Assembly (NCBI GenBank): GCA_963662655.2
Contig: CAXXTU010000001.1
Location: 64,001-128,000 of the forward strand
Source: Candidatus Cloacimonadales bacterium
GTDB taxonomy: Bacteria > Cloacimonadota > Cloacimonadia > Cloacimonadales > JAIOQZ01
Direction of reading: 5' to 3'
DNA length: 64,000 bases
Positions within the stretch are counted from its first letter, which is position 1, and each line of letters starts with the position of its first letter. The notes under the pieces are model-generated. The model ran no database searches, had not been told where the DNA came from, and saw only the letters and a program-made list of their open reading frames with translations. The translations under genes were made by a program, and so were the position numbers. Shown piece by piece: positions 23,440-64,000 of this stretch.

Positions 23440-23554
23440 GCGCGGAGGCGGCGCAGAATCCCCGAAGGGGCTTCTGCATTCCATTGCAATGTTTTCTTGC
23501 AAAAAACATTGCAATGGAATGTTAGTGCGCGGAGCGCACGCGCCGCCCCCGCGC
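23440..23554. repeat. Four-way-junction palindromic element, copy A
   Basis: 15-bp closing stem (1 mismatch) enclosing three hairpins; same architecture as 51435-51546. Confidence 0.75.
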
Positions 23555-41923: not shown

Positions 41924-42049
41924 GGCGCGAGCAGGTTCGTTCGATCCGCTCTTCAGCGTGGTGTTTCACAGCGGAGTTTCAATATCAACTTCCTTTCGGA
42001 GCTGTGGTATATCCACGTTGAAGAGCGGATCGGGCGAAGATGCCGCGCC
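41924..42049 (+). repeat. Long-hairpin element family H, copy 1
   Basis: Nearly identical to 47027-47154; structurally homologous to 57393-57520. Confidence 0.85.
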
Positions 42050-47026: not shown

Positions 47027-47154
47027 GGCGGGAGCAGGTTCGTTTGATCCGCTCTTCAGCGTGGTGTTTCACAGCGGAGATTTTTATCATCAATCTCCTT
47101 TCGGAGCTGTGGTATATCCACGGTGAAGAGCGGATCGGGCGAAGATGCCACGCC
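47027..47154 (+). repeat. Long-hairpin element family H, copy 2
   Basis: Direct repeat of 41924-42049. Confidence 0.85.
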
Positions 47155-51434: not shown

Positions 51435-51546
51435 GCGCGGCGGCGGCGTTGGACGCCAAAGGCGTCCTCGAAAGTTCCCGATGTTGCTTTGCCCTGAGCA
51501 ACATCGGGAACCTTCGGTGCGCGAAGCGCACACGCCGCCGCCGCGC
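51435..51546. repeat. Four-way-junction palindromic element, copy B
   Basis: Perfect 15-bp closing stem gcgcggcggcggcgt/acgccgccgccgcgc enclosing three hairpins. Confidence 0.75.
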
Positions 51547-51599
51547 TGAGCGGGGCACAAACTCCGCAACCTGCACCTCGTGGATCAAGCAGGCCCAAT

Positions 51600-57392: not shown

Positions 57393-57520
57393 GACGTTAG
57401 CAGATTCGTTCGATCCCCGCCTGCACAGGGTGTTCCACAGCCTTGTCGCCTTACATTAGTCCATTCTCAAGGGTGTGGTATATCCCTGTGCAGGCGGGGA
57501 TCGGGCGAAGATGCCACGTC
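57393..57520 (+). repeat. Long-hairpin element family H, copy 3 (divergent, compensatory changes)
   Basis: Same end motifs and internal loops as copies 1 and 2; central stem replaced but still fully paired. Confidence 0.8.
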
Positions 57521-58722: not shown

Positions 58723-61371
58723 CTATCTCAAATCTTCGAGAAGAGCCCGAGTCTTTTCAAGCGTGACACGAACTTCCTCATACTTTTCCTTCTCTTTATC
58801 GACAACCTCTTGAGGAGCGCGAGCGGTGAAACTCTCGTTGTTCAGCTTGCCCTCGATGCGCTTCAGGTCTTGCGAAAGCTTTCCTTCCTGCTTCTCGAGA
58901 CGCGCGATTTCGCCGTCGATATCCACCAAACCCGTCAGCGGCAGGTAAATCTCGATATCGGTTACTACATCCGCAAGAGAAGGCTTCGGACGTGCCACAT
59001 CGGTTCCGACTGTCATCTCTTCGATCTTTGCCAGCTTGGAGAAGTAACCGAGATTCTCTTCGATGATCGATTTCTGTTCACCGGTGGCAACCCTGATCGA
59101 GACGTTGACCATCTTGCCCGGCGCTATACCCATCTGCTTGCGCAGGTTACGGATACAACTGATGCAATCCTGAACGAGTTGCATGTCGCTCTCGATGGTT
59201 GCCTCGATCATTCCATCGTCGCAAACCGGATACTTGGCGATGATCAGCGCTTCCTCTTGCAGCGGCATCTGCTCCTTCAAGCTCTGCCAGATTTCCTCGG
59301 TAATGAACGGCATCAGCGGATGAAGAAGCCGCATGGAATGCTCCAGCACGTGCAGAAGGATGTACTTCGCTGTGCGTTGCGCCTTCTTGTTGTCCTCGTT
59401 GTAAATACGATCCTTGCTGAGCTCCAGATACCACGAGCAGAACTCCTTCCAGATGAATTCCTGGATGAGCTGCGCGGCATCGTTGAACCGAACGTTGGCA
59501 AAATCTTCGTTCGCCTGCTTTGTCACCTGATTCAAGCGAGAAAGAATCCATTTGTCAGCAAGCTCCAGCTCGAGCTCGTCTTCCTTCGGGAGCCCTTCGA
59601 TCTTCTCCACGCTCATCATGATGAAGCGATACGCGTTCCATATCTTGTTCGCGAAATTGCGTCCGTTCTCGATGACAGATTCCGAGAAGTAGCTGTCCTG
59701 ACCGCGCGGCGTATTGAAGATCATGCTGAAGCGGAGCGCGTCGGCGCCATAGATCGCGATGAGGTCGATCGGATCGGGCGAATTGCCCAGCGACTTGCTC
59801 ATCTTGCGGCCCTGCTCGTCCAGAACCATCCCATGCAGGAACACGGTATCGAACGGAATCTTGCCCGTGAACTCCAGCGTAGACATGATCATCCGCGCCA
59901 CCCAGAGGTAGATGATTCCGGGCGCGGTAACCAGCAAATTCGTCGGCAGGAAGTACTCGAGGTCCTGCGTCTTCTCCGGCCAACCCATCGTCGAGAAGGG
60001 CCACAGCCATGAGGAAAACCAGGTATCGAGCACGTCTTCGTCCTGACGGAGTTTATCGCTTCCGCACTTCGGGCAGGTTGTCGGATCCTCTTCGGAGACG
60101 ATCATCTCGCCGCATTCGCAGTACCACGCAGGGATGCGATGTCCCCACCAAATCTGGCGAGAGATACACCAGTCGCGGATGTTCTCCATCCAGTGCAGGT
60201 AAACCTTCGTCCAGCGCTCTGGAATGAACTTCACCTCTCCCGAGTTCACCACGTCGATTGCGGGTTCGGCGAGCGGTTGCATGCGCACGAACCACTGATC
60301 GGAAAGATAGGGCTCAATGACGGTTGCACAGCGGTAGCAATGTCCCACCGCATGCTGATGATCCTCGATCTTGTTCAGAAGCCGCTGCTGCTTGAGCAGT
60401 TCAACGATCTTCTCACGGCAGGCGAACCGGTCCATGCCCTTGAAGAGCGGACTCGCGTTCTCGTTCATGATGCCGTGATCGTCCATCACGAGGATGGGCT
60501 CCAGACCGTGGCGCTGTCCCATCATGAAGTCGTTGGGATCGTGCGCCGGGGTGATCTTCACGCACCCGGTTCCGAAGTCTTTGTCGACGTATTCGTCCGC
60601 GATAATGGGAATCTCTCGCCCGACGAACGGCAGCAGCACCGTCTTACCGATCATGTGCTTGTAGCGCTCGTCGTTCGGATTCACCGCCACCGCAACGTCG
60701 CCCAGCATGGTTTCCGGTCGGGTGGTGGCGACGGTCACGAAGTCGCTTCCGTCACTGAACGGATAGCAGAGGTACCAGAGTTTTCCGGTCTCGTCCTCGT
60801 GATCCACTTCGTCGTTGGAGAGCGCGGTATTGCATCGCGGACACCAGTTGATGATGTAGTTGCCCTTGTAGATCAGGTCCTTTTCATAGAGGTGCACAAA
60901 CACCTTGCGAACCGCGCGAGAGAGCACGTCGTCCATGGTGTAACGCTCGCGTGACCAGTCGCAGGAAGCGCCGAGCTGCTTGAGCTGCTCGATGATGCGA
61001 CCGCCCTTCTGCTCCTTCCATTCCCAGATGCGTTCCACGAGCTTCTCGCGTCCCACGTCGAAACGGGTGAGTCCCTCTTTCGCGAGCTCCTTCTCCACCA
61101 CGTTCTGCGTGGCGATTCCGGCGTGGTCCACACCGGGGAGCCAGAGGGTTGGCCTACCGGTCATGCGCTGATAGCGCACCATCACGTCCTGATAGGTGTT
61201 GTTGAGCACGTGGCCCATGTGTAGGATGCCGGTCACATTCGGCGGCGGAATCAGGATGGTGTAAGGCTCCTTGTCCTTGCCGATCTTCGGCGTGAACATG
61301 CCCTTATCCATCCAGTATTTATACCACTTCTTCTCGGTGGCTTGCGGTTGATATATTTTCTCGATATCCAT
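58723..61371 (-). CDS. valS: Valine--tRNA ligase
   Basis: PPPNVTGILHMGH, DWCISRQIWWGHRIP, KMSKS, C-terminal coiled coil. Confidence 0.98.
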   Translation of the reverse strand: MDIEKIYQPQATEKKWYKYWMDKGMFTPKIGKDKEPYTILIPPPNVTGILHMGHVLNNTYQDVMVRYQRMTGRPTLWLPGVDHAGIATQNVVEKELAKEGLTRFDVGREKLVERIWEWKEQKGGRIIEQLKQLGASCDWSRERYTMDDVLSRAVRKVFVHLYEKDLIYKGNYIINWCPRCNTALSNDEVDHEDETGKLWYLCYPFSDGSDFVTVATTRPETMLGDVAVAVNPNDERYKHMIGKTVLLPFVGREIPIIADEYVDKDFGTGCVKITPAHDPNDFMMGQRHGLEPILVMDDHGIMNENASPLFKGMDRFACREKIVELLKQQRLLNKIEDHQHAVGHCYRCATVIEPYLSDQWFVRMQPLAEPAIDVVNSGEVKFIPERWTKVYLHWMENIRDWCISRQIWWGHRIPAWYCECGEMIVSEEDPTTCPKCGSDKLRQDEDVLDTWFSSWLWPFSTMGWPEKTQDLEYFLPTNLLVTAPGIIYLWVARMIMSTLEFTGKIPFDTVFLHGMVLDEQGRKMSKSLGNSPDPIDLIAIYGADALRFSMIFNTPRGQDSYFSESVIENGRNFANKIWNAYRFIMMSVEKIEGLPKEDELELELADKWILSRLNQVTKQANEDFANVRFNDAAQLIQEFIWKEFCSWYLELSKDRIYNEDNKKAQRTAKYILLHVLEHSMRLLHPLMPFITEEIWQSLKEQMPLQEEALIIAKYPVCDDGMIEATIESDMQLVQDCISCIRNLRKQMGIAPGKMVNVSIRVATGEQKSIIEENLGYFSKLAKIEEMTVGTDVARPKPSLADVVTDIEIYLPLTGLVDIDGEIARLEKQEGKLSQDLKRIEGKLNNESFTARAPQEVVDKEKEKYEEVRVTLEKTRALLEDLR

Positions 61372-61457
61372 CGATTACTCCTATGTATGCAAATCATTGG
61401 GACTGCTACCAGCAGTCAATCTTTTTTATGCCGCTGTTGTTTCGGTTGCTACACAGA

Positions 61458-61607
61458 TCACTCTGACTACCTCAATGTCACTCTGACTACCTAAATGTCA
61501 CCATGACTACCTCATTGTCACTCTGAGCGGAGTCGAAGGGGCATTCTCACTACCTCAATGTCAGCATGACTACCTCAATGTCACCTTGAGCGGAGTCGAA
61601 GGGGCAT
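61458..61607. repeat. 20-nt tandem repeat array interspersed with two REP-like units
   Basis: tcactctgactacctcaatg-type units (x3, then a partial and a fourth unit) and two tcaNNNtgagcggagtcgaaggggcat units. Confidence 0.85.
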
Positions 61608-61683
61608 ACAACTGGCAACCCAAACACAGCGAGAGCACGTTATGATTCTTGTGGAAAATTGTAAGACCTGCCTGTTAAGTGGT

Positions 61684-62214
61684 TTACGCGAGTCCCTTGA
61701 GCTTCTTCGCCTCTTCGATGAAATGGCGATGCGAAGCAAAGGCGATCGGCGGCAGGTCGCTTAGAGGGACGAAACTGGCTTCTGCAGCGTCATCCCCTGC
61801 AAGAAGCCGACCTCCCTCGGCCTTCATGAGAAAGCCGAACGAAAGAATGCTTTGATAGAGTGGAGAAGAGCCCGTGAAATACCCCAGGAACCGCTCGTTG
61901 CGCCCGATGAGACCGGTTTCCTCTTCCAGCTCGCGCACAGAGGTTTCCTCCGGCGTCTGGTCGATCTCGATGTAGCCGCTGGGAAGCGCCCACTCACCCG
62001 CCTTGGGCTCGTTCTTGCGAAGGATGATCAAGAGGCGGTCCTCCTCATCGAAAACCACGCACGCCGCCGCCGGCACCGGGTTCTTGTAGTAAACCCAGCC
62101 GCAACTGTGGCAGTGCGGGCGCTCGCGTCCCTCGTGGTCGCGCCGAATATACAGCTCGCCGCCACAACGAACGCAGTAGTTGATTCCTTCGTAGGTCGCT
62201 TTCGTGTATTCCAT
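61684..62214 (-). CDS. NUDIX hydrolase with N-terminal zinc ribbon
   Basis: CVRCG...CHSCG..YKNP; Nudix box GYIEIDQTPEETSVRELEEETGL. Confidence 0.92.
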   Translation of the reverse strand: MEYTKATYEGINYCVRCGGELYIRRDHEGRERPHCHSCGWVYYKNPVPAAACVVFDEEDRLLIILRKNEPKAGEWALPSGYIEIDQTPEETSVRELEEETGLIGRNERFLGYFTGSSPLYQSILSFGFLMKAEGGRLLAGDDAAEASFVPLSDLPPIAFASHRHFIEEAKKLKGLA

Positions 62215-62268
62215 AGCCAAATAGCTTACTCACCGGGATTTTTTGTCAAGGGGGAAATATAGAATTAC

Positions 62269-62306
62269 TTGACACGAATCATTCACAAACAAATATTTAA
62301 TAAAAT
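62269..62306 (+). promoter_or_regulatory. Putative sigma70 promoter for the structured RNA/HNH transcript
   Basis: TTGACA at 62269 followed by an AT-rich -10 region, ending just before the first paired base (62309). Confidence 0.55.
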
Positions 62307-62308
62307 TG

Positions 62309-62556
62309 CCAGCATTGGATTGTCTTAGCTCACTTTCTTGTCGTATCCTTAGTCCATTTTCTGACTAATGTAATTAATCTAAACGGACAGGAGGCAATTA
62401 TGGGAATAAATGCTCAAATAAGTGCTGGCTTCAAGGTTTCTCCACCATGTCTGGGGCGATAAGGAGAGACCTTAGCTTTGGCTTTGTTGAGCATTGAGCT
62501 AAGCGACAGCGATATACTGGAGACATGGGGAGGGAACTTCCCTCCTCGCCCCGCCA
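62309..62556 (+). ncRNA. Candidate structured RNA / regulatory leader of unknown class
   Basis: Nested stems (cttagctca/tgagctaag; aatgctcaa/ttgagcatt; aaggtttctcc/ggagagacctt; ttagtc/gactaa) plus two loop-to-3' pairings (ccatgtct/agacatgg; ggggcga/tcgcccc); G-U pairs favour the + strand. Confidence 0.6.
62400..62462 (+). CDS. Putative 20-aa leader peptide
   Basis: GGAGG RBS at 62390; MGINAQISAGFKVSPPCLGR*. Confidence 0.4.
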   Translation: MGINAQISAGFKVSPPCLGR

Positions 62557-62569
62557 ACAAGGAGAAGAT

Positions 62570-63337
62570 ATGAGCAGTAATAAGAAAGGCATTTCAACTT
62601 CAGTGATAAAACGACTATGTGCGACATCACACAATCAATGTGCTTTTCCGGGATGTAATCAAGAGCTTTATTTCGAAGATGCAAGCCTTGGTCAAATCTG
62701 CCATATCAAAGGGGAGAATCCATCTTCTGCGAGATACGATGAAAAACAATCTAGTGAAGACAGGCAATCATTCAGTAACCTTATATTGTTATGCCCCAAT
62801 CATCACAAAATCATTGATGACAATCCAAACAAATATACCACTGAATTCCTTTACAATATGAAAGAGAAACATATCGGTGCATTTCCTTATGAATCCAACA
62901 AGGTTGATCCAAAGTGGGTTGAGCTACTCAAACAAAAACTTTCAATAAAAATTGAAACGAATGAAGCCCCAATCTTCACACAGAATCTTACAATAAAGCA
63001 ATCAAAAGGTGCGATAAATAAAGTCCCACTCGAAGGTTCTATCGGCGCAAGTGAGGAACATAGAGCATATATAAAGTATTTAATTGATAGGTATCATAAA
63101 TGTGCAACCGAGGGAATCCATCAAAGGAAAGATTTCAGTTATGCTGTCATATACGTTAATATACGAAAAAAGTTCGGGAATAATTGGGACCGGATTAAGA
63201 TTGAACGATTCGATGATTTGGTAAAGTATCTTCAAGGGTGTATTGACAGAACAGAGTTTGGACGTAATAATAAAAAGGGAAATGAACGAAATTTCCACTC
63301 TTTCGACGAGCACATAACGATAATGATTGGAAAATGA
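62570..63337 (+). CDS. HNH endonuclease-domain protein with ORF6C-like C-terminal domain
   Basis: CAFPGC...ICHI...RY...NLILLCPNHHKIID zinc-HNH; C-terminal YVNIRKKFG..W..I...F..LVKYL; AAGGAG RBS; AT-rich. Confidence 0.8.
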   Translation: MSSNKKGISTSVIKRLCATSHNQCAFPGCNQELYFEDASLGQICHIKGENPSSARYDEKQSSEDRQSFSNLILLCPNHHKIIDDNPNKYTTEFLYNMKEKHIGAFPYESNKVDPKWVELLKQKLSIKIETNEAPIFTQNLTIKQSKGAINKVPLEGSIGASEEHRAYIKYLIDRYHKCATEGIHQRKDFSYAVIYVNIRKKFGNNWDRIKIERFDDLVKYLQGCIDRTEFGRNNKKGNERNFHSFDEHITIMIGK

Positions 63338-63540
63338 TATACTAAGTGAGTAATCTTCCTGTCGAATGATATGTTTTCTCACAGTGAAAAGAAATGTTCA
63401 CTCATCCCCTTCTTTTCCGTTATCCCCCTCCCCCCTCCCCCAGCTTTTTTCTTGACGAAAACGAATCCGCAAGTAAATTGAGTACAGACGATTATCATGA
63501 TCCGAGTTTCCTTGGAAAGAACCTACATTTTGGAGGATAA

Positions 63541-64000
63541 ATGCAAAAGTTTTCACTGAACGAAGTCATCGAAATGGCGGTACAGATCGAGCAGAGCGGC
63601 TACAGCTACTATGATAAGGCGTTGCAGCGCAAGGACCTCGACGAAGAGGCGAAGAACCTGATCACCTTCCTTCGCGATGAAGAAATCCGGCACGAAAAGA
63701 CCTTCATGGCCCTGCGCGACCACCTGGACGAAGTCGAGATCGAGCAGTCGCAAGACTGGGATGTGGTGGGCTCCTACATGCAGGCCATCGTCGATTCGCG
63801 CATCTTCTCGTCGCCTGCGTCGGCCATCCAGACCGCGATCGAAGCCAAGAACGTCACCGAGGTACTCCTGAACGCAATTTCGTTCGAGAAAGACACCCTT
63901 CTTTACTTCCACGCCCTCGACGACCAGGTCAACGGCGGCAAGGCGAAAGAAGCCATTCGTATCATCATCAACGAAGAAATCAGCCACGTTCGCAAACTGA
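63541..64000 (+). CDS. Rubrerythrin/ferritin-like protein (3' truncated by the window)
   Basis: Translated by hand: MQKFSLNEVIEMAVQIEQSGYSYY...DEEIRH...AISFEKDTLLYF...NEEISH; GGAGG RBS. Confidence 0.88.
   Translation, partial: MQKFSLNEVIEMAVQIEQSGYSYYDKALQRKDLDEEAKNLITFLRDEEIRHEKTFMALRDHLDEVEIEQSQDWDVVGSYMQAIVDSRIFSSPASAIQTAIEAKNVTEVLLNAISFEKDTLLYFHALDDQVNGGKAKEAIRIIINEEISHVRKL

Follow-up and report, generated by a model that had tools for sequence, protein, structure and literature searches.

In type III toxin-antitoxin systems of the ToxIN type the toxin gene is preceded by tandem direct RNA repeats and then a terminator, and leader-peptide translational attenuation of the ermC/cat type is a known parallel for control from a short upstream reading frame. 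Among nuclease effectors the closest described systems are Cap5, the HNH-SAVED effector of CBASS, and the HNH-APAZ effector of the guide-dependent SPARHA system (PDB 9om4). As described for the latter, its HNH domain can be superimposed on that of Cap5, the HNH domains of both systems are activated by oligomerisation, and it is the Argonaute, not the HNH domain, that makes SPARHA dependent on a guide (PMC12738770). The present work concerns an HNH nuclease gene and the sequence that precedes it, near the end of a 64,000-nt stretch of the genome of a Candidatus Cloacimonadales bacterium (contig CAXXTU010000001.1, positions 64,001 to 128,000), which is referred to below as the window. A preliminary description of this DNA had proposed a compact unit of a structured non-coding RNA and a nuclease. 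The reading favoured here, to which we give a probability of about 0.62, is that of a single, self-contained, protein-only nuclease gene of defence type carried on an acquired AT-rich islet, with a leader that is specific to this lineage and is not an RNA partner. What is most useful in the locus would then be the protein, a Cap5-type HNH domain fused, through a presumably flexible linker, to a confidently folding, undescribed and recurrent C-terminal domain; the leader RNA is an orphan that is not demonstrable as more than a structured 5' leader.

The evidence for the nuclease domain comes from both profile and structural comparison. Against the PADLOC models the strongest matches of the protein were to PDC-M68A (E 3.6e-29) and SduA (E 1.2e-22), followed by the Cap5 effector models, all of them confined to the N-terminal part. 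In a profile search of the PDB the best match was 9om4_A (E 7.7e-20), and Cap5 chains followed at E 8.9e-15 to 1.7e-12. Structural comparison with VIA aligned the domain with the Cap5 chain 7rwk_B at Z 12.7, rmsd 2.5 Å over 97 residues and 28% identity, and Foldseek matched the Cap5 chain 8fmf_C at E 4.9e-4. The zinc and catalytic positions C24, C29, C44, N70, C75, H78 and D83 are invariant in 18 sequences and H45 is nearly so. The Cap5 type assigned to this HNH domain in the preliminary description is therefore well founded. No NCBIfam family was found for the protein at E <= 1, PHROGs returned unnamed families only and for the N-terminal part only, and a tblastn search of phages matched two records, again in the HNH part alone. 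A start at ATG 62525, which would give a frame of 270 codons, was rejected because the N-termini of the homologues align with the ATG at 62570, which AAGGAG precedes. The protein would be expected to act as a nuclease and to have a role in defence.

The C-terminal domain belongs to no Pfam family. It had been linked in the preliminary description to ORF6C (PF10552), an identification that did not survive: there is no such Pfam match in the protein at E <= 0.1, and at E <= 1 all 18 of the 18 family members lack one as well. The only lead is a language-model match at rank 5 with a score of 0.82, under the 0.9 line. When the C-domain alone was compared by phmmer with 1.84 billion representative proteins, 254 were found at E <= 1e-3, and the domain was nearly always C-terminal. 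Among the best 149 of these 254 proteins, 88 had no Pfam match and 61 had one, the best match being to HNH (PF01844) in 24, HNH_2 in 17, TIR in eight (one of which also has DUF2321), HNH_3 in three, Mrr-like in two, HetE-N in two, and guanylate cyclase, C5 methylase, PFK, zf-Di19 and DUF4062 in one each. A natural fusion of 684 residues (P0178) joins a C5 DNA methylase (6-395), a Cap5-type HNH (about 420-550) and the C-domain (584-681), and it hints at a use of the module in restriction-modification.

A homodimer of the C-domain was predicted with a score of 0.46, against 0.26 for the best control. At least 92% of contacts are common to the runs, and the partner has a predicted local distance difference test (pLDDT) value of at least 77. 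Among proteins of known structure, the mark used for this prediction is attained by 20 of 30 that were solved as pairs and by one of 23 that were solved as single chains. The best VIA matches of the domain, both at Z 6.2, were to Stl (8qe9; 2.1 Å, 66 residues aligned) and NinB (1pc6; 3.2 Å, 75 residues aligned), a value that lies within the range given by the tool for unrelated helical bundles, and the best Foldseek match in the PDB had an E value of 1.4. The domain thus has no assignable fold in the searches run, which does not show that the fold is new. The C-domain is most likely a new, shuffled and probably dimerising module.

If this is so, the C-domain may serve as a regulatory or sensing platform, a role that SAVED fills in Cap5 and APAZ/Argonaute fills in SPARHA. 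By analogy with those two systems, the HNH domains would have to assemble for nuclease activity, and invading or cellular DNA would then be cut. From the TTGACA promoter to the start codon there are roughly 270 nt, which would be the gene's own 5' leader. A hairpin and a 20-codon upstream open reading frame (uORF) within it would act, if at all, in cis, by affecting how stable the mRNA of a potentially toxic gene is or how it is translated. A cis effect of this kind on HNH expression is plausible. The wider proposition, that the protein represents a new family of single-protein defence systems in which the dimerising five-helix C-domain is a common sensor or assembly platform for Cap5-type HNH, classical HNH, TIR and Mrr effectors, we regard as evenly poised.

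The second line of evidence is the absence of a comparable leader from the homologues. Genomes and metagenomes were the sources of the homologous loci: of 597 and 594 candidate stretches, 296 and 302 respectively were confirmed, 80 from each collection were retained, and the loci of relatives were added. A tblastn match was present in 164 loci; 98 of these cover at least 200 residues, and 88 of the 98 have at least 400 nt of upstream sequence. The closest protein other than itself among 5.8 billion is 43% identical, and there is no close relative with an alignable leader. The leader found nothing better than E 0.47 by blastn in 172 other loci, matched only itself in its own genome, where it is single-copy, and gave no match beyond short chance ones in phage and plasmid records. 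One of 202 other genomes of the order had a match, which was 22 nt long and AT-rich. A covariance model of 62320-62505 recovered only itself in 99 sources (389 kb), being a single-sequence model with little power for diverged sequences. A search of Rfam with 61300-64000 at E <= 10 gave four chance-level matches only (best E 1.6; the best sub-threshold match, to mir-593, reached 18.5 bits against a threshold of 100), the whole window gave none at gathering scores, and a search for tRNA and tmRNA found none. This agrees with the earlier view that the RNA is of no recognised family. It was also considered whether the leader might be a decayed gene; this was not supported by blastx against the 1381 open reading frames (ORFs) of the homologue loci, in which the best E value was 2.1.

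When the 350 nt upstream of the gene in 89 loci were clustered by sequence, 59 clusters resulted; the region from the window is a singleton, and the shared blocks are upstream coding genes. The nearest upstream ORF of at least 100 aa is separated from the HNH gene by a median gap of 60 nt and is less than 200 nt away in 70 of 88 loci. Of 50 representative upstream ORFs compared with Pfam, 20 matched at E <= 1e-5. The distance to the HNH start is no more than 100 nt for 16 of these 20, and in those loci there would be no space for a 250-nt RNA. In 18 loci at least 200 nt upstream are free, and none of these loci contains a structured leader, their best 100-nt z values ranging from -0.2 to -2.4 and their whole-region z values from -1.0 to +2.6. 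The homologues are thus without any conserved upstream structure, and the idea of RNA and nuclease as a conserved unit is not supported. Across the sequences compared, the structured leader is not a trait of the family.

The genes around the homologues are for the most part restriction and defence genes. The upstream neighbours with a Pfam match include the type I R subunit, DNA methylases, MmeI, type ISP, Abi_C, AAA_13 and JetD, and further DndB, NERD, subtilase, DUF6035 and DUF4238. Downstream, 14 of 63 ORFs match PADLOC at E <= 1e-6. The family is sporadic, being present in five of 41 related genomes and in none of three in the same genus. In loci L017, L098, L105, L111, L113 and L134 the HNH homologue adjoins an MmeI-type restriction-modification gene; L017 is from the Acidobacteriaceae and most of the others are metagenome contigs. 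The two genes are divergent in L017 and L111, and the upstream 330 nt of the MmeI-adjacent loci are 75-85% conserved among five loci.

Such neighbours raise the alternative that the protein is strictly a restriction endonuclease and not an abortive-infection effector, either as an orphaned type II R subunit or as a modification-dependent (type IV) enzyme with a DNA-reading C-domain. Many homologues adjoin methylases, MmeI, type ISP, Vsr or a methyl-directed restriction endonuclease, the fusion P0178 places a C5 methylase, the HNH and the C-domain in one chain, and McrA, ScoMcrA and TagI are found as weaker structural matches of the HNH domain (Z 6.7, 5.8 and 4.8). However, the C-domain also stands behind domains that do not act on DNA (TIR, HetE-N and cyclase), the HNH domain has a far better match in Cap5 (Z 12.7) than in the type IV enzymes, and there is no methylase next to the copy in the window. 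We therefore think a strict restriction enzyme unlikely.

The gene lies on an islet, as the preliminary description had noted, between a NUDIX gene and a ferritin-like (rubrerythrin-like) gene, and its AT-richness is borne out by a drop in GC content to 0.34-0.41 from 0.55-0.63 in the flanks. The window is matched by same-genus genomes only up to 62257 and again from 63444, with breaks of synteny at 62257/62258 and 63443/63444. The NUDIX and rubrerythrin-like blocks are different loci in the same-genus genomes (594 kb apart in G001 and on separate contigs in G002 and G003), which places the islet at a synteny break. Beyond the rubrerythrin-like gene, ORF length and order match those of G001, suggesting that synteny resumes there. 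Both junctions are bridged by a 1935-nt contig (62059-63993) in runs X1 and X2 from one sample, which is possibly the source of the assembly, so that this contig is not independent support; a further run, X3, has next to none of the words of this stretch. The site beside the NUDIX gene is variable within the genus. In G003 it is occupied by an ApeA-like HEPN gene (L008:84-1475; PF18739 and PF18862), and in G001 (L006:2191-2841) and G002 (L007:2203-2844) by a gene for a membrane protein of 213-216 aa with a weak 8xMP match that is below the Pfam cutoff. Most likely, and as part of the favoured reading, the islet is horizontally acquired DNA at a variable spot beside the NUDIX gene.

The features of the islet are collected in Table 1.

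Table 1. Features of the HNH nuclease islet and of the gene's leader (coordinates are positions in the window).
Feature	Coordinates	Strand	Remarks
AT-rich islet between the NUDIX and rubrerythrin-like blocks	62258..63443		limits from same-genus matches and GC content
Sigma-70-like promoter candidate, TTGACA-17 nt-AATATT	62269..62297	+	10/12 consensus matches
Putative 5' leader of the HNH mRNA	62298..62569	+	about 270 nt; orphan sequence, no match beyond short chance ones in the sets searched
Closing stem, cttagctca/tgagctaag	62324-62332/62495-62503	+	nine perfect pairs; encloses a weak AT-rich left arm and the 87-nt hairpin
uORF	62400..62462	+	20 codons; GGAGG at 62390-62394, 5-nt spacer; reads MGINAQISAGFKVSPPCLGR
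Imperfect hairpin	62409..62495	+	87 nt; 32 pairs, 5 of them G-U; the sole clearly non-random structure
Short G+C-rich hairpin, ggagggaa/ttccctcc	62529..62545	+	flanked by both blocks complementary to the apical loop
Gene for the 255-aa protein (Cap5-type HNH, linker, helical C-terminal domain)	62570..63337	+	AAGGAG at 62560-62565
HNH nuclease domain, aa 8-103	62591..62878	+	Pfam HNH_2, E 4.9e-5
Low-confidence linker, aa 108-150	62891..63019	+	pLDDT below 50
Undescribed five-helix C-terminal domain, aa 150-255	63017..63334	+	pLDDT 93.9 when folded alone

At the 5' end of the islet the TTGACA promoter of the preliminary description is present as a match to the consensus, in a region that holds five promoter-like sites against a shuffle mean of 3.7, which is not above chance. 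The complementary blocks listed earlier for the leader were likewise all found where they had been placed, to within 1 nt. If the leader is transcribed, as we infer, its fold as a whole (62275-62575) is predicted at -90 kcal/mol with a z value of -2.95, and none of 100 shuffles was equally stable. In order to locate this signal the leader was dissected into regions, with 300 shuffles for each. The region of the 87-nt hairpin (62405-62505) folds at -39.3 kcal/mol (z -4.3), and inclusion of the closing stem (62320-62505) gives z -4.4; in neither case was any of the 300 shuffles equally stable. The left part (62275-62405) has a z value of +0.4, and the region 62505-62575, which contains the short hairpin, has z -1.1 with 40 of 300 shuffles equally stable. 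The densely paired region described before is thus real in the hairpin and its closing stem, which exceed the shuffles; its left and right parts do not. The hairpin is also asymmetric between the strands, folding at -39.3 kcal/mol on the + strand and -28.1 kcal/mol on the - strand, and the stronger + strand fold together with the five G-U pairs favours a structure at the RNA level, in the sense of the HNH gene.

The standing of this hairpin was judged by a scan of the + strand of the whole window in 100-nt windows every 50 nt, with 12 shuffles each and a pooled standard deviation. It ranks 13th of 1279, there are 13 such windows below z -4, and those that outrank it are other hairpins and palindromes. 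The hairpin is a genuine but ordinary kind of outlier, notable but not unique.

The preliminary description had gone further and seen in the leader a switchable, pseudoknot-like RNA. The apical loop is indeed complementary to two separate downstream blocks, and if the loop is taken as fixed beforehand this has a probability of 0.0012 (0.12% of 5000 shuffles contain two perfect blocks of 7 nt or more). The probability rises to 0.14 (14% of 300 shuffled leaders) once the loop may be any 19-nt segment of the leader. The two loop-to-downstream helices moreover cross each other, and forcing one of them costs 16.8 kcal/mol and the other 9.0 kcal/mol relative to the minimum free energy (MFE) of -90.4 kcal/mol. 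A full pseudoknot comprising the loop, both downstream blocks and the small hairpin was rejected on geometry, since helices of 12 and 17 pairs would have to be spanned by loops of only 0 and 3 nt, which we judge to be sterically impossible, and also on energy, given these costs. Both complementarities therefore stand as observations, but they are not significant after correction for the choice of loop, they cross each other and their cost is high, and a switch in the leader is not regarded as demonstrated.

Several observations weigh against the protein-only reading. The leader is not random-looking, with the z value of -4.3 for its hairpin and a strand asymmetry that involves five G-U pairs. 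When the leader was dinucleotide-shuffled 5000 times, a Shine-Dalgarno (SD) sequence, ATG and ORF like those of the uORF arose in 1.1% of cases, GGAG motifs number five against 1.5 expected (P 0.0065, 0.65% of 2000 shuffles), and the double complementarity of the apical loop has the low probability given above when the loop is fixed in advance. The leader RNA may therefore have a specific function. As to the protein, the predicted dimer is only just at the mark and comes from an alignment of our own building, neither PADLOC nor Pfam has any model covering the C-domain, and the defence activity of the family is read from its neighbours only. The copy in the window has no adjoining methylase, and its solitary state would be unexplained if it were an ordinary restriction nuclease.

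The features of the leader just listed belong to the most specific form of a cis effect, in which the leader is a switch: translation or stalling on the uORF, which ends ...SPPCLGR-stop, would remodel SD-like and anti-SD-like stems and so set the amount of nuclease, in the manner of leader-peptide attenuation. Besides the GGAGG with its 5-nt spacer, the excess of GGAG motifs and the strand specificity of the hairpin, this proposal has in its favour that the uORF coincides exactly with the hairpin's 5' arm and loop, with its stop at the 3' edge of the loop, and that its own SD is mostly paired in the predicted ensemble (unpaired probabilities 0.02-0.43). A further frame, 62478-62573, also ends in ATGA over the HNH start. 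On the other side, the SD of the HNH gene is mostly unpaired in the same ensemble (five of seven positions at 0.6 or more), which leaves the uORF without an evident sequestered start to release, the alternative pairings lie 9-17 kcal/mol above the MFE, the leader gave no terminator-like site in the terminator scan, nothing similar is seen in any homologue, and the ATGA overlap is by a rough estimate not unusual. The switch can be held only as a tentative possibility. A combination of both layers, in which a protein family with a platform domain would be joined in this copy by gating of a self-toxic nuclease through a uORF-hairpin leader with SD-like and anti-SD-like stems, evolved after transfer, seems quite unlikely. 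The further frame is of 31 codons, with a TTG start and a TGA stop that overlaps the ATG of the HNH gene, and this arrangement could allow translational coupling.

A different role for the RNA would be in trans, either as an antitoxin of type III-like character or as a guide or scaffold in the manner of OMEGA/IscB or Argonaute systems. A stable, strand-specific hairpin does adjoin the nuclease gene, and the closest solved sequence relative of the HNH domain, 9om4_A, is the effector of a guide-dependent system (PMC12738770). The leader region has no tandem direct repeats, however, only two 7-nt pairs. The terminator scan found no terminator-like site on the + strand between leader and gene that could end a separate RNA, and none at the short hairpin, which is not followed by a T-run. 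Rfam gave no match, HEARO and omega RNAs included, and the SPARHA and IscB matches are confined to the HNH domain of a 255-aa protein in which the searches run found no RuvC, APAZ, guide-binding or other RNA-binding domain. With less than 200 nt free upstream in 70 of 88 homologue loci, and the RNA shared by none, we consider an RNA partner very improbable, and the RNA-antitoxin and RNA-guided options of the preliminary description are not retained.

It may also be asked whether the inverted repeats are a relic at the level of DNA, such as a quasi-palindrome left by template switching, or a scar of recombination or of a mobile-element end at a hotspot and synteny breakpoint. The islet lies at a variable site and a synteny break, with flanking blocks that are 594 kb apart in G001, the downstream block 62521-62552 has the reverse complement of the hairpin apex in circularly permuted order, and there are other strong palindromes and repeated hairpin elements in the same window. 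Against this, the sequence is single-copy in the genome, no flanking direct repeats were found in the region scanned, and the + strand RNA hairpin is 11 kcal/mol better owing to its G-U pairs, which a pure DNA palindrome would not show. Such a relic is accordingly thought improbable.

Elsewhere in the window a hairpin element with conserved arms GTGTTTCACAGC...GCTGTGGTATATCCAC is repeated at 41961-42016, 47064-47121 and about 57414-57500, as two copies with exact arms and one related copy (100-nt z values of -4.5, -6.6 and -9.7), and has no match to an Rfam family in the search of the whole window. Very strong palindromic hairpins at 23451-23550 and 51451-51550 (z about -7 and -8) are each followed by a small hairpin of GCGCGNNGCGCAC type and are possibly terminators or a repeat family. 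Six copies of the 20-nt unit TCACTCTGACTACCTCAATG are present at 61458-61607, with a 63-nt super-period repeated twice; they occupy the spacer between the start of the valyl-tRNA synthetase gene and the end of the NUDIX gene and look like iterons or binding sites.

The comparison with known systems can now be drawn together around the protein-only reading. Regulation through the leader would resemble attenuation of the ermC/cat type in having a short uORF on the 5' arm of a stable hairpin before the gene, but here the SD of the HNH gene is not sequestered and there is no alternative fold of comparable energy. The locus resembles the ToxIN type in having a structured RNA region directly upstream of a potentially toxic nuclease gene; it differs in the lack of tandem repeats and of a terminator-like site, and its protein is not in an endoribonuclease family. 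In the case of OMEGA/IscB there is no HEARO-like match in Rfam (the best E value of any match being 1.6), the protein has 255 aa, and the IscB match is limited to the HNH domain (Z 6.9 and 6.5). The type IV enzymes McrA, ScoMcrA and TagI join an HNH domain to a modified-DNA reader; their HNH matches are weak, and the C-domain, which has no assignable fold in the searches run, may or may not be such a reader. Both of the leading PADLOC models are alike only in the N-terminal 100-130 residues: PDC-M68A matches at model positions 5-106 of 253, with no partner gene in the islet, and SduA (Shedu) matches at model positions 16-141 of 326, with no Pfam DUF4263 match in the protein. The name 'PDC-M68' was not found in the literature searched.

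The closest likenesses remain those to SPARHA and Cap5. Of all solved structures, that of the SPARHA HNH-APAZ effector matches the HNH domain best in sequence, but the match to 9om4_A covers residues 5-113 of 435 only, and there is neither an APAZ domain nor an adjacent Argonaute. With Cap5 (PDB 7rwk, 7rwm and 8fmf) the HNH domain has in common its fold and its zinc/His-Me signature. The SAVED domain of Cap5 is absent, since neither the PADLOC SAVED-HNH models nor the Cap5 chains align outside residues 5-113, and the C-terminal half is instead the unrelated five-helix domain; the CD-NTase neighbour of CBASS is also absent, the neighbours here being the NUDIX and rubrerythrin-like genes, and the islet has no other ORF. 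A need for oligomerisation in order to be active is probably shared with Cap5. If the C-domain is indeed a shared sensor or dimerisation platform, it would add one more regulatory module for Cap5-type HNH and TIR effectors to those already known in SAVED and APAZ/Argonaute, and the 255-aa protein would offer a compact system in which to test this.

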